From Escherichia phage VpaE1_ev78, in the sequence record LR597663: a DNA stretch of 64,000 nt. One strand, written 5' to 3'. Below the pieces are notes generated by a model. That model did not search any database. It was not told the DNA's origin and saw nothing but the letters and a program-made list of their open reading frames with translations. This document shows positions 3,783 through 32,097 of the stretch, in pieces. Position 1 is the stretch's first letter. Every line of letters begins with the position of its first letter. A program made the position numbers and the translations under genes.

Positions 3783-4331
3783 ATGAAGAAATTGATTCTA
3801 GGTTTGTGCTTAATGTTTACAGCACACTTATCTTATGCAGTTGACTGCCCAGAGCTATCAATTAGCCAAAAAGTAAACATGTTAAAAGCTTACCAGTATG
3901 GTGAGAATAACATGGGTAAAGGTTGGGGTATCACTCTAGCTGCTATAGCCTTACAAGAGTCAGAGTTAGGTCTGAAGGTAGAGAATAAAAAGACACATGA
4001 TTATGGTATTTTCCAGAATCACTTGAAGACTGTTGTAAAGCGTAACAAAATTAGTCCTAATGTGGCTAAAAAGAAACTCTTAAAAGACTTTGACTATGCT
4101 GCAAAGGAAACGCACAAAGAACTTGAGTTTTGGACAAAGGTGCATGGTCAGCCAAAGTCAAAGAAGACTTTACAAAAAGTTTTAGCATCATATAATGCTG
4201 GGTATTCGTACAGAATCCCTAAAGCTAAGAAGTATTCTCAAGATGTCTATAACAACATGAAAGTTATTGCTCAATGTGAATTTGCAACAAACATTTCTAA
4301 GGTAAATCATGAAAAAATTAAGAAAGTCTGA
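3783..4331 (+). CDS. Secreted protein with lytic-transglycosylase (SLT)-like motifs
   Basis: 182 aa; N-terminal signal peptide MKKLILGLCLMFTAHLSYA; AIALQESELG ... DYGIFQ resembles SLT catalytic Glu-Ser and GLMQ-type motifs; GGAG RBS. Confidence 0.45.
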   Translation: MKKLILGLCLMFTAHLSYAVDCPELSISQKVNMLKAYQYGENNMGKGWGITLAAIALQESELGLKVENKKTHDYGIFQNHLKTVVKRNKISPNVAKKKLLKDFDYAAKETHKELEFWTKVHGQPKSKKTLQKVLASYNAGYSYRIPKAKKYSQDVYNNMKVIAQCEFATNISKVNHEKIKKV

Positions 4332-5004
4332 TGAAGTACTGTGTCATGCTTATGACTTACACCCTCATGAGTTAGGTCTTAATTCCTGTGTATGGACTCC
4401 AGAACAGTGTAGGGATTTTGAAGACACCGCAAGAGAAGTTGTATGTTCACTCGAAGAGTTCCACACATCAGAGCCAATTGTGAATGTTGTAGATAAAGAG
4501 ACTGGACAAACTATAGGCGTGAGTCGTGATAGCTTAGTCATAGTCAATAAAGACCTTGTAGAAAAAGGGAATCTCATCTTAGCAGATATTGATGGTGTTC
4601 TTACAAATTTTAATCACGAAGATTGCTCAACGGAATTGACTGATGGTTCATTCTCACAGTATACCAATCTTCTTGATTCTGTAAGAGCAAAGCCAACGTA
4701 TGTTTTCAATATCATTGATGCAATTGCTAATCATGCTGCCATTGGACTCTTGACAGCGAGAGGTGAATCTCAGAGAATACCTACTGAGATGTTTTTAAGG
4801 CATTACATAGAGCATGATTACATGCTTTTTATGCGTGGTTTTGGGACTAACTCTATAAGTGCAGAAAGTTTGAAAGTGAGGATGATTCAGTCTTGCATTC
4901 TGCCTTACTTTAATATAGTATGCTTTATAGAAGATACAGAGAAGAATGTGCAGAAGGTGAACAGAATCCTTCCACACATTAAAACCATGTTAGTTAAACA
5001 TTGA
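4309..5004 (+). CDS. HAD-superfamily phosphatase-like protein (possible 5'(3')-deoxyribonucleotidase)
   Basis: 231 aa; HAD motif I ILADIDGVLTN (DxDGV), downstream T/S and D motifs; overlaps previous gene by 23 nt. Confidence 0.4.
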   Translation: MKKLRKSDEVLCHAYDLHPHELGLNSCVWTPEQCRDFEDTAREVVCSLEEFHTSEPIVNVVDKETGQTIGVSRDSLVIVNKDLVEKGNLILADIDGVLTNFNHEDCSTELTDGSFSQYTNLLDSVRAKPTYVFNIIDAIANHAAIGLLTARGESQRIPTEMFLRHYIEHDYMLFMRGFGTNSISAESLKVRMIQSCILPYFNIVCFIEDTEKNVQKVNRILPHIKTMLVKH

Positions 5005-5014
5005 GAGAAAACTT

Positions 5015-5479
5015 ATGAATAATATCATTACGGTAGCACTGGACGATACGGCAAACAAATCTGAAGTAGTTCGTAAAATGATTCAAGGTAACTTTGAAGG
5101 TAAAATTTTCCGTGCTGTTAATGTAAAAGCTGATGGTAGCATTCGTGAATATCGTGCATTGTTGAACGTTAAGAAGCACGTAAAAGGTGTTGGTTCAACG
5201 ACTGCACACAAAGAAAACCTGATGACTATCTATGATATGGGTAAGGCTTCAGAGTTAGGTGCTGAAGGTATCGTTAAAGAAGGTGCTCCGTATCGCTCTT
5301 TCAATCTGGAAACTACTCTTATGCTTTCCTTTACAAGTGGTTCCAAAACAATCACTTATCTCTTTACTGATGCTGCAACGGTATCTGCTATTAAGGATAG
5401 CACTGTCAAAGCTGGCGTAGTTGCTGCTGCAAAAGCTTCTTCGATGGCTGCGAATATCCTTGCTAAAGTCCTCGGTTAA
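5015..5479 (+). CDS. Hypothetical protein
   Basis: 154 aa ORF in early operon; followed by terminator. Confidence 0.45.
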   Translation: MNNIITVALDDTANKSEVVRKMIQGNFEGKIFRAVNVKADGSIREYRALLNVKKHVKGVGSTTAHKENLMTIYDMGKASELGAEGIVKEGAPYRSFNLETTLMLSFTSGSKTITYLFTDAATVSAIKDSTVKAGVVAAAKASSMAANILAKVLG

Positions 5480-5484
5480 GGTTA

Positions 5485-5512
5485 AGATACAGGCTCCTTC
5501 GGGAGCCTTTTT
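5485..5512 (+). terminator. Rho-independent terminator
   Basis: caggctcc-ttcg-ggagcc stem-loop followed by TTTTTC. Confidence 0.65.
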
Positions 5513-5531
5513 CATTTCAGGAGATTGTTAA

Positions 5532-5879
5532 ATGACATTTAAAGAGTTCTGTCAAGCTACTTTCATAATTGTTTTCTTAGTTGGTGCAGGTGTCTGGGGA
5601 GGATACTCTTACAGAGACTATCAAGTTGCTGAAACTGAGCTAAACAATCAAAAGCTCATAAGTGTTGCTAAAGATGCTTATCAGGAAGGGTTAGTCACAC
5701 TGAGCACCAATTACAAAAATGATTTGAAAGATGTGCTTGCTAAGAATAAGCATACAAAAGAGGTACTAACATATGAAAAAACTAAGCCAGAGTTTTATAA
5801 TGTTTGTGTTACTGATAACTATGTCAGGGTGTTCAACGAACAAAGTGAGCAGTACATTCAAAAACTCCCAAGTAAGTGA
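5532..5879 (+). CDS. Hypothetical membrane protein
   Basis: 115 aa; AGGAG RBS; hydrophobic N-terminus FIIVFLVGAGVWGG; 3' end overlaps next ORF by about 100 nt in another frame, so one boundary is uncertain. Confidence 0.35.
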   Translation: MTFKEFCQATFIIVFLVGAGVWGGYSYRDYQVAETELNNQKLISVAKDAYQEGLVTLSTNYKNDLKDVLAKNKHTKEVLTYEKTKPEFYNVCVTDNYVRVFNEQSEQYIQKLPSK

Positions 5880-6042
5880 GAGTGATAAGTACACGCAAGA
5901 AGAATCACGGTATATCATCAAAGGTAACACAGGCAGTGATGTAGCAGCAGCACTTGAGTTCTACCGTGATGGGTTTTACCAGTGCACAATCAAAGCTAAT
6001 AACCTCATTGACATGATTTTATTAGGGAATAAGCAGCAATGA
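5773..6042 (+). CDS. Putative lipoprotein
   Basis: 89 aa; AAAGAGG RBS; signal peptide with lipobox-like LITMSGCS. Confidence 0.45.
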   Translation: MKKLSQSFIMFVLLITMSGCSTNKVSSTFKNSQVSESDKYTQEESRYIIKGNTGSDVAAALEFYRDGFYQCTIKANNLIDMILLGNKQQ

Positions 6043-6310: not shown

Positions 6311-6637
6311 ATGCAGATTAATGGAAGAGACTTTGTAGCCGTTTACTACGAGAAAGGTAAAGAAGTTGGCGTAGCACAAGTATCTTATGGCAATGGTAAG
6401 TGGCTATATGGAACAATCGCAGTAGTAGGCACAAGAAGTGATACAAAAACTTTTAAAGATTGTGTTGACCTTCTTGAAGAATCCATCCAGAATCATTGGT
6501 GTCTGATATGGATGACTGACAACGAAGTGATAGAACGCTTCAAAAAGATTGATATCAACATTGATAGTATTGAGCATGTTGATTTATATGAACTGACTGA
6601 GAAGGTAAATTATGAGAGTAATTCTAGCCAGAGATAA
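6311..6637 (+). CDS. Hypothetical protein
   Basis: 108 aa ORF tightly packed in operon. Confidence 0.4.
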   Translation: MQINGRDFVAVYYEKGKEVGVAQVSYGNGKWLYGTIAVVGTRSDTKTFKDCVDLLEESIQNHWCLIWMTDNEVIERFKKIDINIDSIEHVDLYELTEKVNYESNSSQR

Positions 6638-6839
6638 AAAGACACGGAAAATTATCCGGTCAGCAGTATTCATTGGAAGAAATAAAGTGATTCCATTTAC
6701 AGCAAATGATGTGATAGCCTACAGGGAAAAATTAGCATTTAGTTATTGCTTGCGTGGCTTCATCTCACAACCATTGGAAGACTTCAAAAGTCGTTGTGGT
6801 AAAGGTATCATCATTCAAGAGGCAATTATCAATGGCTGA
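6612..6839 (+). CDS. Hypothetical protein
   Basis: 75 aa ORF overlapping neighbours by a few codons. Confidence 0.3.
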   Translation: MRVILARDKKTRKIIRSAVFIGRNKVIPFTANDVIAYREKLAFSYCLRGFISQPLEDFKSRCGKGIIIQEAIING

Positions 6840-7032
6840 CTTCTGCAAAGACTGTTCTATAGAAATGTTTGGACGTGATACAGGTGACTTAAAAGGTCTT
6901 ATCACTGAAGATGACTTTAAAGCTGGCTACGCAATGCCAGTAATCTGTGAAGGTTGTGGGTGTATCTGGGTAGACCACGAAGGACAGCGTGTAAAACCTT
7001 CAGAAGATAAAGAATCTTGGGAGAGATGTTAA
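6832..7032 (+). CDS. Small zinc-ribbon protein
   Basis: Internal ATG of track ORF 6754-7032 chosen to avoid overlap; MADFCKDCS...CEGCGC gives CxxC...CxxC. Confidence 0.35.
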   Translation: MADFCKDCSIEMFGRDTGDLKGLITEDDFKAGYAMPVICEGCGCIWVDHEGQRVKPSEDKESWERC

Positions 7033-7818
7033 ATGGGTATTGTAAAAATCATCAAAGGTGATATCTTTGATGCCTTTGATAAAGGCAAATTTGATATCAT
7101 TGGTCATGGTTGCAACTGTATGAATTTCATGGGTGCAGGTATTGCAGCAACTATTTCTAAGCGTTATCCAAAAGTGTATGATACTGACACAGAAGTTTAC
7201 CTGTTTGCAGGTGGCATTCGTCACAAACCCTGTGAAAATTTACTAGGTAATTTCTCTGTAGCACGTTTAAAACAAGGCCGTATAGCTAACCTTTACACCC
7301 AACTTCATACTGGTAAAGATGCCCGATACAGTGCTTTAGAGTCATCTTTGAAACAGCTTAACAGATACTGTGAAGTTAACCAGTTGAAGAAAGTTGGTCT
7401 ACCTATGATTGGTGCAGGTATCGGTGGGCTTGACCCTCAAGCTGTCACAGTTATCATTAATCAGGTGATGAAGAGTGTAGATGTTTATCTGTATGTCTAT
7501 GAAGCAAAAATGTATAATGAGTTACACTCAGGTTGGAAAAACTACTGTGAACCAGAATACTTTGCAGGTGTAGTTGTGTTCACAGATAACGAAGTTACCC
7601 TCTTCAGACGAAGAAAAGGTAAGATACATCAAAGTAACCCTCCGGTTGAAAAGATGTCTCTGAGTAACGCTCTAGTTACCCACCTGTCGAAGAGCAATCA
7701 CAGGATTGCAGTAACATTTGGCAGTGATGCAGATACTTATATCTATGCAAGAACTGATGAGGATATCGAGACAGTTTTCTCTTCACCAGAAGTTACCTTC
7801 TTAGACGCAAAGAACTAA
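7033..7818 (+). CDS. Macrodomain protein (ADP-ribose binding/processing) with C-terminal extension
   Basis: 261 aa; N-terminal about 160 aa matches macrodomain signatures: IIKGDIFDAF...IIGHGCNCMNFMGAGIAATI and VGLPMIGAGIGGLDP. Confidence 0.6.
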   Translation: MGIVKIIKGDIFDAFDKGKFDIIGHGCNCMNFMGAGIAATISKRYPKVYDTDTEVYLFAGGIRHKPCENLLGNFSVARLKQGRIANLYTQLHTGKDARYSALESSLKQLNRYCEVNQLKKVGLPMIGAGIGGLDPQAVTVIINQVMKSVDVYLYVYEAKMYNELHSGWKNYCEPEYFAGVVVFTDNEVTLFRRRKGKIHQSNPPVEKMSLSNALVTHLSKSNHRIAVTFGSDADTYIYARTDEDIETVFSSPEVTFLDAKN

Positions 7819-7889
7819 GAAACTCTGTAGAATATTCACAATAGACCAAGCCTTTCTTATCTGGTAAATTTTTCAGGTAAGGAGGGCTT

Positions 7890-8082
7890 TTTCATTTCAG
7901 AATTGTGCAGGTAGATTTCTATAGAGAAACCTGTAGAGAAAATATTGAACTCCAAAGAGAAAATTCATTTTCAAACTGTGCAGATAATCTCCAAAGAGCT
8001 TTTTCATTTTCAAAACGTGCAGACCCCGCTCAGGTCGGGCAAGAAAAATCATTTTAGATTTGTGCAGGTAGGTTTTTATAGA
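7890..8082 (+). repeat. Four tandem promoter-like repeats TTTCATTTTCA..TGTGCAGG(N9)TATAGA in a 0.5 kb leader
   Basis: TGTGCAG-type cores at about 7904, 7977, 8016 and 8061, each preceded by TTTCATTT; two copies followed 9 nt later by TATAGA. Confidence 0.5.
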
Positions 8083-8094
8083 GAGCCAGACCAA

Positions 8095-8124
8095 CCCCTC
8101 TCCCCCTCTTACTCCCCCTCTCCC
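8095..8124 (-). repeat. G-tract cluster (four runs of 4-5 G on the minus strand; C-tracts on plus)
   Basis: Plus strand cccctctccccctcttactccccctctcccc; conspicuous in an AT-rich genome. Confidence 0.5.
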
Positions 8125-8247
8125 CAAAAGTCAAGAGAAAAATTTGTAGCGGATTGAAAAATAATTCTTGATTTGTGTTCTGTTTTGTGGTAGTCGTGTG
8201 CGCCCGTTTCATTACAGTTTTGCCAAAAATATTTTTAAAATTTTTTC

Positions 8248-26405: not shown

Positions 26406-26482
26406 CTCTGTTTAGCTCAGCTTGGTAGAGCGTTCCGTTTGGGGCGGTAAGGCCGGAGGTTCAAGTCCTCCAACAGAGACCA
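26406..26482 (+). tRNA. tRNA-Pro (anticodon TGG), CCA encoded
   Basis: 7 bp acceptor ctctgtt/aacagag, D-loop with GG, T-arm ggagg-ttcaagt-cctcc; hand-folded. Confidence 0.55.
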
Positions 26483-26489
26483 AATTAAT

Positions 26490-26567
26490 GTTCCAGTAGA
26501 CAAAATGGTAAAGTCACCACTCTTTCAAAGTGGATATCTGAGGGTTCAAATCCCTTCTGGAACGCCA
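26490..26567 (+). tRNA. tRNA-Glu (TTC)
   Basis: Acceptor gttccag/ctggaac, anticodon stem ccact/agtgg with loop ctTTCaa, T-loop ttcaaat, CCA encoded. Confidence 0.6.
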
Positions 26568-26574
26568 GTTTTGA

Positions 26575-26648
26575 CAGAAGACCAATTGCAGCAAACTTAA
26601 TCTTATTCATCTGAAGGTAAATCGGACAAAGAAGAGATTTGGTCTGGT
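26575..26648 (+). repeat. Inverted-repeat-bracketed element, copy 1 (cagaagacca ... tggtctgg)
   Basis: Conserved 5' end cagaagacc(a/g)..t.cagcaa and 3' end ggtctgg shared by four elements; ends are mutually complementary. Confidence 0.55.
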
Positions 26649-26658
26649 CATTAAGAAT

Positions 26659-26735
26659 TGCGGGTATAGAGAAAGGGCGTCTCACATGTCTCATTAGCAT
26701 GGTATCGGCAGGTTCGACTCCTGCACCCGCCTCCA
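26659..26735 (+). tRNA. tRNA with CAT anticodon (Met/Ile2/initiator type); acceptor register uncertain
   Basis: D-stem gaga/tctc, anticodon stem catgt/gcatg with loop ctCATta, T-arm gcagg-ttcgact-cctgc; 1-72 appears mismatched. Confidence 0.4.
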
Positions 26736-26741
26736 AATTTA

Positions 26742-26806
26742 CAGAAGACCGTTTACAGCAATATTTATTAAATTTTTAGCGGAAAAAATTGAAAGATACG
26801 GTCTGG
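26742..26806 (+). repeat. Inverted-repeat-bracketed element, copy 2
   Basis: 5' acagaagaccgtttacagcaa identical to copy 4; 3' cggtctggtaa. Confidence 0.55.
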
Positions 26807-26819
26807 TAACACTAAACAT

Positions 26820-26896
26820 GGTTAGGAAGCACATAAGGTATGTGCGGTCGCCTGTTAAGCGAATGGCACAGGGTTCGAATCCCTGACTAACCGCCA
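26820..26896 (+). tRNA. tRNA-Asn (GTT)
   Basis: D-stem gcac/gtgc, anticodon loop ctGTTaa, T-arm caggg-ttcgaat-ccctg, CCA encoded. Confidence 0.55.
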
Positions 26897-26905
26897 AATT
26901 TAAAT

Positions 26906-26993
26906 GTGTCGTTATCCCGTAGATGGTAGCGGTGGGGACTGTAAATCCCTTGTCATTGAGACTCGGTAGGTTCGACTCCTACACGGCACACCA
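26906..26993 (+). tRNA. tRNA-Tyr (GTA), long variable arm
   Basis: Acceptor gtgtcgt/acggcac, anticodon loop ctGTAaa, 88 nt with extra arm, T-arm gtagg-ttcgact-cctac, CCA encoded. Confidence 0.6.
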
Positions 26994-26998
26994 ATAAA

Positions 26999-27076
26999 GG
27001 TTATGTAGTTTAATTTGGTTAAAATACTCCCCTGTCACGGGAGATGATGAGGGTTCAAATCCCTTCGTAACCGCCA
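26999..27076 (+). tRNA. tRNA-Asp (GTC)
   Basis: Acceptor ggttatg/cgtaacc, anticodon stem ctccc/gggag with loop ctGTCac, T-loop ttcaaat, CCA encoded. Confidence 0.65.
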
Positions 27077-27137
27077 ATTTTGAGAGGGCTATTTAGCCCC
27101 TCCCTTAAAGAGTTCTTACGAGTATTCTTTAAAGGAG

Positions 27138-27211
27138 CAGAAGACCAAATACAGCAAGTTATTTAAAATTTCAAGCCAATTTAATTTTGAAAAATTTAAA
27201 ACTTGGTCTGG
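27138..27211 (+). repeat. Inverted-repeat-bracketed element, copy 3
   Basis: cagaagaccaaatacagcaag ... cttggtctgg. Confidence 0.5.
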
Positions 27212-27224
27212 CTCAACAAATTTA

Positions 27225-27355
27225 CAGAAGACCGTTTACAGCAAAACTTAACAATCTATTTCTCCGGTAAAGAAAAGGCGAAGGTTCGATTCCTTCACTC
27301 GGCAGATGTCGAGTTGGTGTAATGGTAGTACTTAAGATGATAAACAACGGTCTGG
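27225..27355 (+). ncRNA. Inverted-repeat-bracketed element, copy 4, carrying tRNA-like fragments (candidate structured ncRNA or decayed tRNA)
   Basis: Same conserved ends as copy 2; interior has a T-arm gaagg-ttcgatt-ccttc (27280-27296), a 7 bp hairpin (27297-27314) and a D-arm-like tggtgtaatggtagtac, but no anticodon arm. Confidence 0.4.
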
Positions 27356-27504
27356 TAATTATCTTTGTAGATAAGTTATTAAGCTTACCTGTGAGTATGC
27401 GACCACAAAGGGTGAAAGGGTAAATTCTAGATTTAAACCCAAAAAGGCACATCGCTACAGACCTTAAGCAAGTCTGGGTAGCTTATCTACAAAGATAATT
27501 TAAT

Positions 27505-27580
27505 GGAAGTGTAGCAGAATGGTGATGCGGCAGACTTTTAATCTGACAGGCGATGGGTTCGAATCCCTCCACTTCTACCA
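27505..27580 (+). tRNA. tRNA-Lys (TTT)
   Basis: Acceptor ggaagtg/cacttct, anticodon loop ctTTTaa, T-loop ttcgaat, CCA encoded; T-stem appears short. Confidence 0.5.
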
Positions 27581-27584
27581 ATAT

Positions 27585-27661
27585 GGTTCAGTCGCAGATA
27601 AGGTAATGCAAGGGTCTCATAAGCCCTATGAATGTGGGTTCGATTCCCATCTGAACCTCCA
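27585..27661 (+). tRNA. tRNA-Met (CAT)
   Basis: Acceptor ggttcag/ctgaacc, anticodon stem agggt/gccct with loop ctCATaa, T-arm gtggg-ttcgatt-cccat, CCA encoded. Confidence 0.6.
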
Positions 27662-27662
27662 A

Positions 27663-27738
27663 GCTGGTATAGTTAAGAAGGTTATAACACTCCCCTGATA
27701 AGGGAACATCGGTGGTTCGATTCCACCTACCAGTACCA
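27663..27738 (+). tRNA. tRNA-Ile (GAT)
   Basis: Acceptor gctggta/taccagt, D-stem gtta/taac, anticodon loop ctGATaa, T-arm ggtgg-ttcgatt-ccacc, CCA encoded. Confidence 0.65.
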
Positions 27739-27753
27739 ATTTCAATAAAGTTG

Positions 27754-27782
27754 TTGACATTGAGATGTGACTACTTTATAGT
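27754..27782 (+). promoter_or_regulatory. Sigma70-like promoter (TTGACA-17-TATAGT) inside tRNA region
   Basis: Consensus -35, 17 nt spacer, TATAGT -10. Confidence 0.55.
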
Positions 27783-27986
27783 AACCTTAGTTTTCGTTGC
27801 GTAGCGTCTATTTTGCAAATTTAAAATAAATGCAAACGACAATGTTTTTCTGGCAGTAGCTTGATAGGCTAAACACCAGTGAGGTCTTCCAATCCCTCAT
27901 CAAAGAATTTGGCGTACTCGCCCACGGTATGATTAATAAGGTGGGCATCTTTAAGGGCTTTCTAAGAGAGTCTTTAAAGATAATTA

Positions 27987-28068
27987 CGGGGCGTATCTCA
28001 GCGGTCTTCTAAACCGCCGTTAACCGAGTAAGTGGAGTATGCGGGTTCGAGTCCTGCCGCCTCGACCA
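27987..28068 (+). tRNA. Atypical tRNA-like gene (no clear D-arm; anticodon-type loop ctTCTaa); identity unresolved
   Basis: Acceptor cggggcg/cgcctcg, T-arm gcggg-ttcgagt-cctgc and CCA present; only one perfect 5 bp stem-loop in the body, 23 nt between it and the T-arm. Confidence 0.3.
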
Positions 28069-28082
28069 ATTTTGGAGAAATC

Positions 28083-28430
28083 ATGAAAACTTGTATTAGG
28101 TGCAAACTTAGCAAGGATGAAAATGATTTCTACATGAAAGATGGTAGGAGAACTCATTCATACTGTAAAAAGTGTGTTAATGAGCAAACCATAGAAAGAC
28201 AAAGAGCACTTAAACTCTCAGCTATTGAGTACAAAGGTGGGGTTTGTCACGATTGTGGTAAAAAGTATCATCCAGCAGTGTATGACTTCCATCATTTGAA
28301 TCCTTCAGAGAAAGATTTTAACATTGGTCATAGGAAAAGCCTTAAGTTCTCTCAAGAACTAAAAGATGAACTTGACAAATGTGTTTTGCTATGTTCAAAT
28401 TGCCATAGGGTAAGACATGCAAAGTATTAG
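28083..28430 (+). CDS. HNH endonuclease with N-terminal zinc finger
   Basis: Start at ATG (MKTCIRCK) with GGAG RBS; CxxC...CxxC then DFHHLNP...LLCSNCHRVRH (HNH motif); track start 28032 lies in the upstream tRNA. Confidence 0.6.
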   Translation: MKTCIRCKLSKDENDFYMKDGRRTHSYCKKCVNEQTIERQRALKLSAIEYKGGVCHDCGKKYHPAVYDFHHLNPSEKDFNIGHRKSLKFSQELKDELDKCVLLCSNCHRVRHAKY

Positions 28431-28573
28431 TTAGCAGATTACTTAGACGACCTAAGCGGGTCTTCCTGTAGGGAGGTGGTCTGTATCTCATGTTTTCCAG
28501 AACATGTAAATAATCTGAGAAGAAGCTTGACAGTGTTGAGATAACAGGGTAAGCTTCGAATTATAGTTTTAAT

Positions 28574-28644
28574 AGGGGTGAGCTATGGCAGCAATAGAGT
28601 CTCCAAAATTCTTGATTAGAGTTCGAATCTCTACACCCCTGCCA
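28574..28644 (+). tRNA. tRNA-Trp (CCA)
   Basis: Acceptor aggggtg/cacccct, anticodon loop ctCCAaa, T-arm tagag-ttcgaat-ctcta, CCA encoded. Confidence 0.5.
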
Positions 28645-28658
28645 GAACAGGTGCTTGT

Positions 28659-29063
28659 ATGAAACTTTGTAGAAAATGTTCTCAAGAAAAGCCTTTAAGC
28701 TGCTTTCATAAAAGAGGTAATGGCTATCAGTCTGCTTGCAAAGATTGTAAAGCTAAGTACTCAGCAAAGAGATACAAAGAAGACCCTACTTATAAAGCAA
28801 AAAGAAAAGTTAGGGCAAAATATGACAAAAAGAGGAACAGAGAGTTCCTTAGTAGATATAAAAAGTTTTGCAAATGCAGAATATGTGGCGAATCTGAGCC
28901 AGTAGCTTTGGATTTTCATCACTTAGACCCTAAAGAGAAAGATTTTGCTCCAAGCAATCTTAAAACTTACTCTAGGGGCACTATTAAGCGTGAAGTCCGT
29001 AAGTGTGTTGTGCTTTGTTCAAACTGTCATAGGAAAGTTCATGAAGGACTGTTAAGTATTTAA
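28659..29063 (+). CDS. HNH endonuclease with N-terminal zinc finger (paralog of 28083-28430)
   Basis: 134 aa; CRKCSQEK...CKDC zinc finger and DFHHLDPKEKDF...VLCSNCHRKVH HNH motif. Confidence 0.6.
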   Translation: MKLCRKCSQEKPLSCFHKRGNGYQSACKDCKAKYSAKRYKEDPTYKAKRKVRAKYDKKRNREFLSRYKKFCKCRICGESEPVALDFHHLDPKEKDFAPSNLKTYSRGTIKREVRKCVVLCSNCHRKVHEGLLSI

Positions 29064-29076
29064 CAGTCTTATTAGG

Positions 29077-29164
29077 GGTAGGTAGCGGCTAATGGTAGCC
29101 AAACTGTCTTGAAAACAGTTGCCACTGTAGAGATACGGTGAGGGTTCGACTCCTTTACTTACCG
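29077..29164 (+). tRNA. tRNA-Ser (TGA), long variable arm
   Basis: Acceptor ggtaggt/acttacc, anticodon stem actgt/acagt with loop ctTGAaa, 88 nt with extra arm. Confidence 0.6.
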
Positions 29165-29323
29165 CCTAATAAGATTTAAAGCCAAGCTTCATTCGGATGT
29201 TGCTTTGGTATCCCGCGTGTATTGTTGTACACACTGATAAAGCACCTAGTAGGTGTCACGGAGAAGAGATAATATCAAGCTCTCCAAAGGTTCTAGTCAC
29301 CGGATTAAACAAGACTATGCAAA

Positions 29324-29350
29324 GACCTTTTTAGGTCTTTTTAGAGGGCT
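29324..29350 (+). terminator. Terminator-like hairpin
   Basis: aaagacc-ttttta-ggtcttt followed by TTAG. Confidence 0.4.
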
Positions 29351-29421
29351 TCTAAGGTTATTACAGCTTGTTGTGGAACCTTGTTGCTTAGGTTCTTAGA
29401 AGTTCTCTAAAAAGATTTAAT

Positions 29422-29499
29422 GGGAGATTGACGGTAATTGGTAAACCTATCTCGCTTAGAACGAGATGTTTGAGGGTTCGAATCCCTTGTCTCCTACCA
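29422..29499 (+). tRNA. tRNA with anticodon TAG (Leu-type) but short variable loop
   Basis: Acceptor gggagat/gtctcct, perfect anticodon stem tctcg/cgaga with loop ctTAGaa, T-arm gaggg-ttcgaat-ccctt, CCA encoded; only 5 nt variable region. Confidence 0.45.
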
Positions 29500-29506
29500 A
29501 ATTAAT

Positions 29507-29582
29507 GCAGGTGTAGCAAAATGGTTATGCGGCTGACTCTTAATCAGTAAGACGATGGGTTCAATTCCCTCCACCTGTACCA
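29507..29582 (+). tRNA. tRNA-Lys (CTT)
   Basis: Acceptor gcaggtg/cacctgt, anticodon loop ctCTTaa, T region gatgggttcaattccctcc like the Lys(TTT) gene, CCA encoded. Confidence 0.5.
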
Positions 29583-29587
29583 AAAAT

Positions 29588-29663
29588 GGGGTCATAGTTT
29601 ATATGGTTAAAATTCGAGTTTTGCAAACTTGGGAACTGAGTTCAATTCTCAGTGACTCCACCA
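29588..29663 (+). tRNA. tRNA-Ala (TGC)
   Basis: Acceptor ggggtca/tgactcc, anticodon stem cgagt/acttg with loop ttTGCaa, T-arm ctgag-ttcaatt-ctcag, CCA encoded. Confidence 0.6.
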
Positions 29664-29669
29664 ATTAGT

Positions 29670-29744
29670 GCATCCATAGTTTAAACGGGAAAATTACAGT
29701 CTTCCAAACTGAGGTTGAGGGTTCGATTCCCTCTGGATGCTCCA
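29670..29744 (+). tRNA. tRNA-Gly (TCC)
   Basis: Acceptor gcatcca/tggatgc, anticodon loop ctTCCaa, T-arm gaggg-ttcgatt-ccctc, CCA encoded. Confidence 0.6.
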
Positions 29745-29751
29745 AATTAAT

Positions 29752-29827
29752 GCTCCTATCGTATAATTGGCTATTACGGTTGCCTTGTAAGTAACTTATC
29801 AGGGTTCGAATCCTTGTGGGAGCACCA
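29752..29827 (+). tRNA. tRNA-Thr (TGT)
   Basis: Acceptor gctccta/tgggagc, anticodon stem gttgc/gtaac with loop ctTGTaa, T-loop ttcgaat, CCA encoded. Confidence 0.6.
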
Positions 29828-29924
29828 ATTTAGAGGTCAAGTGAAAGACCGCTTTGAGTCAACTGAAGACCGTAACAAATTCCACGGAGTTGAGTTAGCG
29901 GCACAACTCCAGACCTCTTCTCAC

Positions 29925-29999
29925 ACTCGCTTAGTTTATATGGTAAAACACCACCCTTACAAGATGAAGAAAAAGGTTCAAGTCCTTTAGTGAGTACCA
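29925..29999 (+). tRNA. tRNA, anticodon uncertain (possibly TAC, Val)
   Basis: Acceptor actcgct/agtgagt, T-arm aaagg-ttcaagt-ccttt, CCA encoded; anticodon stem pairs poorly. Confidence 0.4.
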
Positions 30000-30000
30000 T

Positions 30001-30078
30001 GTTCCAGTATCCCAATTGGCAGAGGATGCAAGCTCAAACCTTGTACTAGTGATGGTTCGAATCCATCTTGGAACACCA
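30001..30078 (+). tRNA. tRNA with anticodon CAA (Leu-type) but short variable loop
   Basis: Acceptor gttccag/ttggaac, anticodon stem gcaag/cttgt with loop ctCAAac, T-arm gatgg-ttcgaat-ccatc, CCA encoded. Confidence 0.45.
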
Positions 30079-30083
30079 ATTTT

Positions 30084-30159
30084 GCAGGATTAGTTCAAAT
30101 GGATAGAGCAACAGTCTACGAAGCTGTTAATAGGGGTTCAAATCCCTTATCCTGCGCCA
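30084..30159 (+). tRNA. tRNA-Arg (ACG)
   Basis: Acceptor gcaggat/atcctgc, anticodon stem acagt/gctgt with loop ctACGaa, T-loop ttcaaat, CCA encoded. Confidence 0.6.
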
Positions 30160-30178
30160 ATTTAAAGAGGCTATTTAG

Positions 30179-30736
30179 ATGAGATATTTGAAGTATGCTT
30201 CATGGATTTTCTTAGCTTTGTTAGAACCATTTGCAGCAATCTTAGCAGTTATCTTAGCACCTTTTGTAGTTCCATTCTACAGTGAGAAGAAAGGACACTT
30301 ACCTTTCGGGTTCAGATGGATGGAGACATATGACAACCCAATTGATGGTGATGAAGGTCACGTTAAAAGATGGGCTAATATTAGATGGATTGGTAAACTA
30401 GGTGTCTACATGCAAAGAGTCGGATGGCTCTGGAGAAACAAAGCTTATAACTTCTCTTACCATGTGTTAGGAAGAGATGTAAAAGATGTTACTAAGTGGA
30501 AAGGTAATATCAACGTAAGTTCTAACCCTGAAGATAATCAGACAGGTTATCTCCTAATGTGGAACAGTAATGCTTGGGGATTATTCGCTTTTACCCCATC
30601 AATTAAAATCTTTGGTAAACAGTTTTACTGGAGAATTTATATTGGGTGGAAGCTAAAAAGTGTTGTCCCAGAAGAAAGAGCATTCTCAAGGGAAAGAGTT
30701 ATGTTGGCATTCTTTATTCATCCACTAAGAAAGTAA
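30179..30736 (+). CDS. Hypothetical membrane protein embedded in tRNA array
   Basis: 185 aa; AAGAGG RBS; hydrophobic N-terminus WIFLALLEPFAAILAVILAPFVVPF; Trp-rich. Confidence 0.5.
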   Translation: MRYLKYASWIFLALLEPFAAILAVILAPFVVPFYSEKKGHLPFGFRWMETYDNPIDGDEGHVKRWANIRWIGKLGVYMQRVGWLWRNKAYNFSYHVLGRDVKDVTKWKGNINVSSNPEDNQTGYLLMWNSNAWGLFAFTPSIKIFGKQFYWRIYIGWKLKSVVPEERAFSRERVMLAFFIHPLRK

Positions 30737-30744
30737 AGATTTAA

Positions 30745-30820
30745 AGGGGATTAGTTTACAAGGTTAAAACCTCGGTCTTTGAAATCGAAGAAGTTGGTTC
30801 AATTCCAACATCCCCCGCCA
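30745..30820 (+). tRNA. tRNA-Gln (TTG)
   Basis: Acceptor aggggat/atccccc with 1-72 mismatch, anticodon loop ctTTGaa, T-arm gttgg-ttcaatt-ccaac, CCA encoded. Confidence 0.5.
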
Positions 30821-30822
30821 AT

Positions 30823-30901
30823 GCTCCATTACTCCAATTGGCAGAGAGGCCAGACTTAAAATCTGTGTTATGTATCGGTTCGAATCCGATATGGAGTACC
30901 A
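30823..30901 (+). tRNA. tRNA with anticodon TAA (Leu-type), atypical fold
   Basis: Acceptor gctccat/atggagt, 4 bp anticodon stem with loop ctTAAaa, T-arm atcgg-ttcgaat-ccgat, CCA encoded; 8 nt variable region. Confidence 0.4.
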
Positions 30902-30905
30902 AATT

Positions 30906-30981
30906 TAGCGGTATAGCATAACTGGCAATGCAGCAGCCTCTGAAGCTGTCCTATTAAGGTTCAAATCCTTATGCCGCTGCC
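30906..30981 (+). tRNA. tRNA-Gln (CTG)
   Basis: Acceptor agcggta/tgccgct, anticodon stem gcagc/gctgt with loop ctCTGaa, T-loop ttcaaat, CCA encoded. Confidence 0.5.
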
Positions 30982-31012
30982 ACTTCTAAGGATTCTTACG
31001 AGAGTCCTTAAA

Positions 31013-31088
31013 TGTGGCCTTATCATAAATGGTAATGACCCATGCTGTGAACATGGTCTATACGGGTTCAAATCCCGTAGGTCACCCC
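31013..31088 (+). tRNA. tRNA-His (GTG)
   Basis: Acceptor gtggcct/aggtcac, D-stem tcat/atga, perfect anticodon stem ccatg/catgg with loop ctGTGaa, discriminator C, CCA encoded. Confidence 0.65.
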
Positions 31089-31092
31089 AATT

Positions 31093-31168
31093 TATAGTCC
31101 AAGTAGCTTATATGGTTAAAGCGCGTGTCTGAAAAACATGAGAAGAGGGTTCAAATCCCACTGGACTA
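31093..31168 (+). tRNA. tRNA-Phe (GAA)
   Basis: Perfect 7 bp acceptor tagtcca/tggacta, anticodon stem cgtgt/acatg with loop ctGAAaa, T-loop ttcaaat. Confidence 0.6.
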
Positions 31169-31187
31169 CCAATTTCAAAGGTGCTTA

Positions 31188-31922
31188 ATGAAAGAGATGA
31201 CAGAACAAGGTAAGGAGATTTTTAATCTCTTAAAAACCGGTAAAGGGTTCTCTAACCCACTTATTACTGGTGCAGCAGTTCTCGGTGGAACCGTAGCTGC
31301 TTCTACATCACTTGTAAGCTCTATTAGTTCTGTAACAGACCCTACAATGAAGGAGAAACTTGTTGCTGCTGGACTTACAACAGTCCTTCTAAACAGCTTT
31401 ACAACAAGCCTTACAAGCACTACAGCAACTACTAAAACTCTGACAGACTACGGTCAAAAGTCTATTGATGAGTTTTCATCACGTATGCAGGTAGCAAAGG
31501 GGTATTCCAATGTTATGGGTGCAGCAGGAGAACAAGTTGGTTGTACACCATTCAGTGGTATCATGGGTGTTGCTACAGAGTATGGTCAAAAAGCTATTGA
31601 CATGATGAACAGTACACTAGATAGTGTTAATGGTGTGTTAAGTGACTTGCAAGATGCTATTGATAAGGGTCTTGATACTGTTTCTGATTTAGCTAATCAG
31701 GCTGTTAGTAAGATTAATGAAGGTATTTCAAAGATTACAGCTTATGCAGATGAAGTTGTGCAGATGATTGAAGAAGAAGCTGCCCTTATTGCAGAGTACC
31801 TTAAAACGAATATCAATGGGTTCTTAGCAGGTATCTTACCAGACTGGTTTGATGATGCCTGTAAAACTGGTGTGATTGACACTATTGCAACACCAGAAAT
31901 GAAGAGCGCATTACAGAAATAA
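31188..31922 (+). CDS. Hypothetical Ser/Thr-rich protein
   Basis: Start at internal ATG (MKEMTEQ) with AAAGGTG RBS, because track start 31125 lies inside tRNA-Phe. Confidence 0.45.
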   Translation: MKEMTEQGKEIFNLLKTGKGFSNPLITGAAVLGGTVAASTSLVSSISSVTDPTMKEKLVAAGLTTVLLNSFTTSLTSTTATTKTLTDYGQKSIDEFSSRMQVAKGYSNVMGAAGEQVGCTPFSGIMGVATEYGQKAIDMMNSTLDSVNGVLSDLQDAIDKGLDTVSDLANQAVSKINEGISKITAYADEVVQMIEEEAALIAEYLKTNINGFLAGILPDWFDDACKTGVIDTIATPEMKSALQK

Positions 31923-31924
31923 AT

Positions 31925-32017
31925 GGAAGATTAACCCTAAAAGGTAAGGGAGCAGTTTGCTAAACTGCCAGTAGCTGAGAAATCGGTGTACCAGTTCAAG
32001 TCTGGTATCTTCCTCCA
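31925..32017 (+). tRNA. tRNA-Ser (GCT), long variable arm
   Basis: Acceptor ggaagat/atcttcc, anticodon stem gcagt/actgc with loop ttGCTaa, 93 nt with extra arm, CCA encoded. Confidence 0.65.
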
Positions 32018-32021
32018 ATTT

Positions 32022-32097
32022 GAATCCGTGACAGAAATGGCTATGTGCCTGTCTGCAAAACAGGTTTATAAGGGTTCGAGTCCCTTCGGATTCTCCA
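32022..32097 (+). tRNA. tRNA-Cys (GCA)
   Basis: Acceptor gaatccg/cggattc, anticodon stem cctgt/acagg with loop ctGCAaa, T-arm aaggg-ttcgagt-ccctt, CCA encoded. Confidence 0.65.

Follow-up and report, generated by a model that had tools for sequence, protein, structure and literature searches.

In the 64,000-nucleotide stretch of Escherichia phage VpaE1_ev78 DNA analyzed here (sequence record LR597663; the whole stretch is called the window), one complete open reading frame (ORF) encodes a two-domain protein with an N-terminal macrodomain, homologous to the anti-DarT factors Tk.4 of phage T4 and gp104 of phage PhiKZ, and a C-terminal domain that is restricted to Felix-O1-like phages (Table 1). 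The start codon is preceded on its 5′ side by a Shine-Dalgarno-like GGGAGAG, as read from the DNA. The window represents a Felixounavirus (Ounavirinae), and the macrodomain gene is conserved across this group. Over 3 kb around the gene, the window shares 98.6% identity with Escherichia phage vB_EcoM_ULIM3, which encodes a 100% identical macrodomain protein, and 92–95% identity with many Felix-O1-like phages of E. coli and Salmonella. A tblastn search recovered homologs from 2,817 phage records; at least 80% of the query was covered in just 258 of them, corresponding to the two-domain form.

The gene is surrounded by phage genes (rIIA and rIIB, a polynucleotide kinase gene, spanin genes, and small ORFs assigned to PHROGs). 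It is an orphan without a partner toxin, since its surroundings contain no gene for DarT or any other ADP-ribosyltransferase; the ten flanking ORFs yielded no Pfam match to such enzymes, and tblastn with T4 Alt as query found no Alt-like ADP-ribosyltransferase in the window. When the window was searched by tblastn with T4 Tk.4, PhiKZ gp104, and DarG macrodomains, this gene was the sole match; T4 61.2 (AdfA) and 30.3 (AdfN), used as queries for other anti-DarT factors, had no match in the window.

Table 1. Features of the macrodomain gene and its surroundings; positions are those of the window unless stated otherwise.
Feature	Position	Strand	Basis or remark
Complete ORF for the two-domain macrodomain protein, 261 amino acids, ATG start	7033..7818, including stop codon	+	ORF finder list
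Macrodomain, residues 1–157; TARG1/DarG-like (ALC1-like) class, T4 Tk.4/AdfM clade	7033..7503	+	Pfam Macro; PADLOC and NCBIfam DarG; Foldseek; BLASTP
H25-G-C-N28-C...M33-G-A-G-I-A38: active-site Asn and first Gly-rich ADP-ribose/phosphate-binding loop	7105..7146	+	Invariant in alignment A1
N86-L-Y-T-Q90 motif	7288..7302	+	HMMER to TARG1; BLASTP to PhiKZ gp104; MAFFT table
G122-L-P-M-I-G-A-G-I-G-G-L-D134: second Gly-rich loop	7396..7434	+	G122, P124, G127, G129, I130, and D134 invariant
C-terminal orphan domain, residues 158–261: one helix, six beta-strands, C-terminal helix; possibly PH-like	7504..7815	+	
66-amino-acid CxxC...CxxC ORF upstream of the macrodomain gene; zinc-ribbon-like pattern, phrog_2210	6832..7032	+	Read from sequence
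Intrinsic terminator, hairpin and U-run, closing the transcription unit	7848..7889	+	Pattern scan; RNA fold
Allelic replacement of the macrodomain gene	Contig L008, 7001-7780 (window ~7175-8003)		Protein and nucleotide comparison

Macrodomain identity and phage relatives

Residues 1–157 form a genuine macrodomain, with matches well beyond chance. The initial annotation had recognized an N-terminal macrodomain by three motif strings, and all of them are present (GDIFDAF at residues 9–15, GHGCNCMNFMGAGIAATI at residues 24–41, and VGLPMIGAGIGGLDP at residues 121–135); its reading of the domain is borne out by profile and structure comparisons. The Pfam Macro profile (PF01661) matched residues 25–141 at an E-value of 5.3e-7, with 30 bits against a gathering score of 22, and was covered at 116 of its 118 positions (2–117). 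PHROG 335, annotated as "phosphatase," matched the protein end to end (E = 5.7e-115). The PADLOC profile of DarG (E = 5.7e-15; profile positions 5–146 of 329) and the NCBIfam profile antitoxin_DarG (NF048014; E = 9.1e-15; positions 2–152 of 338) matched the macrodomain part only; DarG was the sole match among defense-system profiles, and both scores exceeded those of T4 Tk.4 itself. Searched as a single sequence against PDB entries, the protein matched human TARG1/OARD1 (E = 1.4e-6) and the DarG proteins of M. tuberculosis (5e-5) and Thermus aquaticus (Taq; 1e-4). A family profile of 15 sequences lifted these matches to 8e-14, 4e-11, and 2e-8, respectively, and added SCO6735 of Streptomyces coelicolor (E = 2.2e-10) and yeast Poa1p (E = 1.6e-9). 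An AlphaFold2 model built on the same 15-sequence alignment reached a mean predicted local distance difference test score (pLDDT) of 81.4. In a Foldseek comparison of this model with the PDB, TARG1 with ADP-ribose (4J5S) ranked first, with a target-normalized template modeling (TM) score of 0.83, followed by TTHA0132 and DarG macrodomains at 0.75–0.79 (Taq DarG 0.76–0.79; 0.76 with ADP-ribose bound). The macrodomain part is basic, with an isoelectric point near 9.

A true DarG antitoxin was considered and rejected: the score of 54.7 bits stands against an equivalog cut-off of 250, the C-terminal DarT-binding domain of DarG has no match, and no darT gene is adjacent. The window protein and bacterial DarG (NF048014; PDB 5M31, 5M3E, and 5M3I) have in common a homologous N-terminal macrodomain and a two-domain layout with the macrodomain first; they differ in the C-terminal domain, which is unrelated by sequence, in the missing darT, and in the replacement of DarG Lys80 by Gln. 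By tblastn, a search for bona fide DarG on plasmids yielded nothing but genes with the generic label "macro domain-containing" or with a SLOG annotation.

Two relatives of the window protein have been studied in phages. BLASTP aligned it with T4 Tk.4 at 35% identity over 161 amino acids (E = 5e-24), and PHROG 335 was the best PHROG of the window protein, T4 Tk.4, and PhiKZ gp104 alike (E = 6e-115, 1e-65, and 8e-43); T4-like tblastn matches adjoin the gene vs and are identified as tk.4 in annotated records. Transposon sequencing (HIDEN-SEQ) identified tk.4 as the single significant T4 gene needed on a DarTG2 host, and a clean tk.4 knockout became DarTG2-sensitive; the gene was named adfM, for anti-DarT factor Macrodomain, and enzymatic removal of ADP-ribose from DNA was inferred, not shown (preprint 10.1101/2025.11.20.689424). 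Independently, PhiKZ gp104 and its chimallivirus homologs were also named AdfM; the purified PhiKZ protein strips ADP-ribose (ADPr) from an oligonucleotide carrying the DarT2 modification (T-ADPr), with N23A included in the assay as active-site control, and on DarTG2 hosts the titer of AdfM-mutant phages falls by 3–6 logs (PMC13309987). Other anti-DarT factors differ from AdfM in their mode of action; AdfN belongs to the NADAR enzymes and acts specifically on guanine adducts, and ICP1 AdfB is a protein of 77 amino acids that works by binding DarT.

The initial annotation had proposed counter-defense against ADP-ribosylation, naming DarTG or Thoeris. Since the window protein is homologous to two AdfMs that protect their phages from DarTG2, the DarTG half of this proposal finds support in sequence comparison and can be narrowed to DarTG2; for Thoeris or cyclic ADP-ribose signals, no positive evidence was obtained. 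The resemblance to T4 Tk.4 extends from PHROG 335 to the motifs HGCNC, NLYTQ (with Gln at the Lys position), and IGAGIG, and to the status of both genes as orphans in virulent coliphages of myovirus morphology. In contrast to the window protein with its additional C-terminal domain of 104 amino acids, Tk.4 consists of the macrodomain alone (155 amino acids); its gene neighbors are tk, vs, and regB rather than rIIA, rIIB, pnk, and the spanin genes, and the DarTG2 phenotype has been demonstrated for the T4 protein, whereas the window protein is known by homology. PhiKZ gp104 has the same PHROG assignment, the macrodomain fold, and an aligned catalytic Asn (N23 in PhiKZ, N28 in the window protein), but it differs in having kept the DarG-type Lys (K78) at the site of Gln90, in its import into the phage nucleus, and in lacking the C-terminal extra domain.

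Active site with glutamine at the lysine position

Active-site residues were compared in a MAFFT alignment of 32 sequences comprising DarGs (taken from PDB alignments obtained with PhiKZ gp104), TARG1, both AdfMs, and 26 database homologs. N28 aligns with N22 of Taq DarG and N23 of PhiKZ AdfM, and the second Gly-rich loop aligns with the DarG motif PPLGxGNGGL; the loop cores GAGIA (residues 34–38) and GAGIGG (127–132) are invariant. HMMER, BLASTP, and MAFFT agree in aligning Q90 with the catalytic Lys, which is K80 in DarG, K84 in TARG1, and K78 in PhiKZ AdfM; N23 and K78 of PhiKZ are themselves putative active-site residues, equivalent to N22 and K80 of Taq DarG (PMC13309987). The Lys/Asp dyad is absent as a whole, since D125 of TARG1 also corresponds to a different residue, G131. 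The initial annotation had called for a mapping of catalytic residues; the Asn is kept, and the replacement of the DarG/TARG1 Lys by Gln had escaped it. HGCNC and NLYTQ occur in every member of the Tk.4-like clade, T4 Tk.4 included, and Q90 within NLYTQ is strictly conserved in 26/26 Tk.4-like homologs, which suggests that the site is catalytic rather than decayed. Since T4 Tk.4, a functional AdfM, also has Gln at this position, the active-site Lys is not a defining feature of the T4-type branch.

A precedent for Gln at this position is the ALC1/TARG1-like macrodomain protein SCO6735 (PDB 5E3B), which stands alone, hydrolyzes thymidine-linked ADPr-DNA, and protects against DarT; it has Gln85 at the DarG/TARG1 Lys position, the Q85A and Q85E variants lose all activity, and a water-mediated mechanism was proposed by its authors (PMC9411070). 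Q90 and Q85 are matched to each other indirectly, by way of TARG1 and DarG. Since SCO6735 with its essential Gln85 is active on ADPr-DNA, Gln at the Lys position is no argument against activity. SCO6735 differs from the window protein as a bacterial housekeeping or stress protein without the C-terminal domain, and in sequence it is not closer than TARG1 or DarG. Human TARG1/OARD1 provides the best match among solved structures; its Lys84/Asp125 dyad corresponds to Gln90/Gly131 in the window protein, and it acts on protein-linked ADPr in a eukaryotic context.

The loss of the catalytic Lys could also mean that the window protein binds ADP-ribose without hydrolyzing it and serves as a reader, a sponge, or a neutralizer of DarT, with the C-terminal domain as its binding module. 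The substitutions at Q90 and at the TARG1 D125 position would fit such a protein, as would two precedents for action by contact: SCO6735 Q85A, although catalytically dead, continues to inhibit DarT through interaction (PMC9411070), and ICP1 AdfB acts through DarT binding. The invariance of N28 and of both Gly-rich loops, the strict conservation of NLYTQ, and the DNA hydrolase activity of SCO6735 with an essential Gln at the equivalent position (PMC9411070) argue for an enzyme, and we regard a purely binding function as very unlikely.

C-terminal domain and allelic variation

The initial annotation correctly described a C-terminal extension of about 100 amino acids. Compared with the allele of the annotated relative Pr103Blw, the ratio of non-synonymous to synonymous substitution rates (dN/dS) was 0.09 for this part and 0.10 for the macrodomain part; thus, residues 158–261 are real coding sequence under purifying selection, not read-through. 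At greater divergence, the C-terminal domain gathers approximately 2–3 times more non-synonymous change than the macrodomain. Its model is beta-rich, with a pLDDT of 78. Pfam gave sub-threshold matches only (NAC, E = 0.018; PH, E = 0.16), a phmmer search of 1.84 billion cluster representatives recovered only its own Ounavirinae family, a profile search of 5.8 billion proteins yielded nothing beyond a fragment and one allele in split form, and in BFVD only a Felix-like phage macrodomain protein was found. The domain is therefore restricted to Felix-O1-like phages and has no detectable relatives elsewhere in these searches. By sequence it is not the DarT-binding domain of DarG, since the DarG profiles stop before it. 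A DNA mimic or DNA binder was also considered and set aside, as a net charge near zero that varies between homologs supports neither. One candidate relative, P0031, turned out to be merely a split or frameshifted copy of an allele (cluster P0009) described below. In the short contig L012 (positions 291-1069), a P0009-type allele is split into a macrodomain ORF of 162 amino acids and an overlapping C-terminal ORF of 114 amino acids; the split may reflect a frameshift or assembly error, or the two domains may be naturally separated here.

We tentatively, with low confidence, assign the C-terminal domain a role in protein contact; a catalytic role is unlikely. That it represents an independently evolved module for DarT binding or for targeting the replisome is a doubtful, more specific possibility. 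If it were true, the Felix-O1-type protein would be a two-function DarG mimic that combines Gln-type enzymatic erasure with stoichiometric capture, and its hypervariable alleles would follow different host DarT variants.

The variability of the gene is most evident in contig L008 (Logan SRR18206799). Its ten matching flanking proteins are 95–100% identical to those of the window, and its upstream nucleotide identity is 95.6% across 6.5 kb; yet its macrodomain protein, unchanged in length and architecture, is only 39% identical (50% in the macrodomain part, 23% in the C-terminal part). Homology breaks approximately 140 nucleotides into the gene and resumes approximately 190 nucleotides downstream of it. 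The L008 allele belongs to the cluster P0009 with 96 member sequences. In the more distant Ounavirinae contigs L009 and L010, the macrodomain proteins are 64–68% identical to the window protein, in line with their neighbors at 58–87%. The L008 pattern is an allelic replacement at a fixed locus, typical of arms-race or counter-defense genes and suggestive of such a role without proving it, and the conserved but fast-evolving C-terminal domain together with the 39% identical allele suggests that specificity determinants lie outside the catalytic core.

Such an allele swap would suit any arms-race role, and the protein might counter another ADP-ribose-based defense, either by hydrolyzing or sequestering the Thoeris signals gcADPR and His-ADPR or by removing ADP-ribose that other host ADP-ribosyltransferases, such as those of the CmdT type, attach to RNA or protein. 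A wide range of ADPr conjugates is bound by macrodomains, a macrodomain is what ThsA, the effector of Thoeris II, uses to sense His-ADPR, and TARG1, the nearest structure, acts on protein-linked ADPr. The papers found link no member of the clade to Thoeris or CmdTAC, DarG is the only defense profile matched, and T4 Tk.4 emerged as the single significant gene specifically under DarTG2 (10.1101/2025.11.20.689424); a target other than DarTG2 is, in our estimate, quite unlikely.

Gene neighborhood and predicted role in DarTG2 counter-defense

The macrodomain gene closes a block of co-oriented ORFs that is delimited by hairpin terminators at 5491–5508 and directly downstream of the gene; the downstream hairpin folds at -24.9 kcal/mol (z = -7.1 relative to shuffled sequences). 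The TAA stop codon of the preceding 66-amino-acid CxxC ORF directly abuts the macrodomain start codon, so that the two ORFs are possibly coupled in translation; L001 and L008 both carry the CxxC ORF with 100% conservation, regardless of the macrodomain allele swap. No convincing sigma-70 promoter was found directly upstream of the macrodomain gene, and a literature search for Felixounavirus transcriptomes gave nothing relevant; judged from its position, early expression of the gene is plausible. In Pr103Blw, the gene lies in the right genome arm, approximately 7 kb from the terminal repeat, with rIIA, rIIB, a polynucleotide kinase gene, and spanin genes upstream, all in the same orientation. 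Among the ten ORFs flanking the macrodomain gene in the window, all except the polynucleotide kinase gene belong to PHROGs of unknown function.

One of the small ORFs (75 amino acids, phrog_6082; window 6612–6839) is hypervariable among Felixounaviruses that are nearly identical otherwise; the Pr103Blw version has 70% identity amid neighbors at 96–100%, and L008 carries an outright replacement. This ORF may represent another arms-race gene in the operon of the macrodomain gene. Further upstream (window 4309–6042), the polynucleotide kinase gene is closely followed by the i-spanin and o-spanin genes, with one ORF of 154 amino acids between. In T4, the spanin genes pseT.3 and pseT.2 likewise adjoin pseT; a tblastn search with T4 PseT gave no match at the polynucleotide kinase gene of the window.

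The intergenic region just past the macrodomain gene terminator contains four copies of the motif TCATTT-N7-GTGCAG (window 7892–8067). Across the entire window, five matches (four exact and, elsewhere in the window, one with a single mismatch) compare with 0.42 expected, and none of 100 shuffled sequences reached five; the motif is kept in L008, and the repeats may be an operator or phage-promoter array. The same intergenic region carries a long polypyrimidine tract (CCAACCCCTCTCCCCCTCTTACTCCCCCTCTCCCC; window 8087–8125). At window positions 26406–32097, 26 tRNA genes are clustered, each of them on the + strand.

The polynucleotide kinase gene, located 2 kb upstream of the macrodomain gene in the same orientation, bears on a further explanation, in which the protein clears soluble by-products of RNA repair or of host enzymes that consume NAD, as an ADPr-1″-phosphate phosphatase like yeast Poa1p or as an O-acetyl-ADP-ribose deacetylase, and does not act on DNA. 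The family has long been annotated as "phosphatase / A1pp motif," and the N-terminal motif H25-x-C-N-C...GxGIA aligns with that of Poa1p (H23-S-C-N-C), with H25 opposite H23, a residue that has been probed by mutation in the yeast enzyme. In the metagenomic homolog P0020 (339 amino acids), a Tk.4-like macrodomain is joined to a cyclic-phosphate processing receiver domain (cREC_REC; PF20274, E = 4.7e-7), which hints that some members of the clade process soluble ADPr cyclic phosphates, and most phage Macro domains have been argued to act on soluble ADPr derivatives (Iyer et al., 2022). Against this stand the specific DarTG2 phenotype of the T4 homolog, which has the same motifs (10.1101/2025.11.20.689424), and the weaker overall similarity of Poa1p, an enzyme of soluble ADPr-1″-phosphate from a eukaryotic context that TARG1 and DarG outscore in both sequence and structure comparisons. 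The vicinity of the macrodomain gene showed no KptA or 2H gene. As established for the Tpt1/KptA pathway, T4-type Pnk/ligase repair yields no ADPr-1″-phosphate, which also counts against a role in soluble clean-up; we consider such a role unlikely.

On balance, the window protein is probably an orphan DNA ADP-ribosylglycohydrolase of the AdfM type that would erase thymidine adducts made by DarT2, using N28 and a water positioned by Gln90, with the C-terminal domain as a putative accessory interaction module. Several points weigh against this assignment. The active-site Lys of DarG and PhiKZ AdfM is absent; identity to PhiKZ gp104, the biochemically characterized AdfM, is only 25% (BLASTP, E = 2e-5); and the support from T4 AdfM is genetic only and comes from a preprint. 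The Poa1p-like motif and the general argument for soluble substrates of phage Macro domains count in the same direction, as does the cREC fusion, which would imply soluble substrates for at least some relatives. No paper linking Felixounavirus with DarTG was found, and in a knockout screen of phage Bas63 (PhageMaP), DarTG was not among the systems and the macrodomain gene is not discussed in the main text.

In the proposed sequence of events, a triggered host DarTG2 system places ADP-ribose on thymidines of single-stranded phage DNA through DarT2 and thereby blocks replication. The phage macrodomain would bind the ADP-ribose moiety via the Gly-rich loops G34–A38 and G127–G132, and the thymidine–ribose bond would be hydrolyzed by N28 and the water that Q90 positions, following the Gln-type mechanism of SCO6735 and not the Lys-type one of DarG, so that replicable DNA would be restored. 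The C-terminal domain may serve as an accessory module that contacts either DarT, in the manner of DarG with its unrelated C-terminal domain, or phage replication proteins.

Felix-O1-like phages are widely used for typing, biocontrol, and therapy of Salmonella and E. coli, and it is therefore useful to know which host defenses they neutralize. A testable function, DarTG2 counter-defense, can now be assigned to a gene that is labeled "phosphatase" or "hypothetical" in approximately 250 genomes. The principle that phage macrodomains act as anti-DarT2 factors is already known (published 2025–26), and the current picture of ADP-ribosylation conflicts remains unchanged; new in detail are the Gln-for-Lys signature of the T4-type branch, the orphan C-terminal domain restricted to Felix-O1-like phages, and the deep allele swap. 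The uniform presence of Gln in place of the DarG Lys ties the T4-type AdfM branch mechanistically to SCO6735, and the window protein extends the principle to another phage group.

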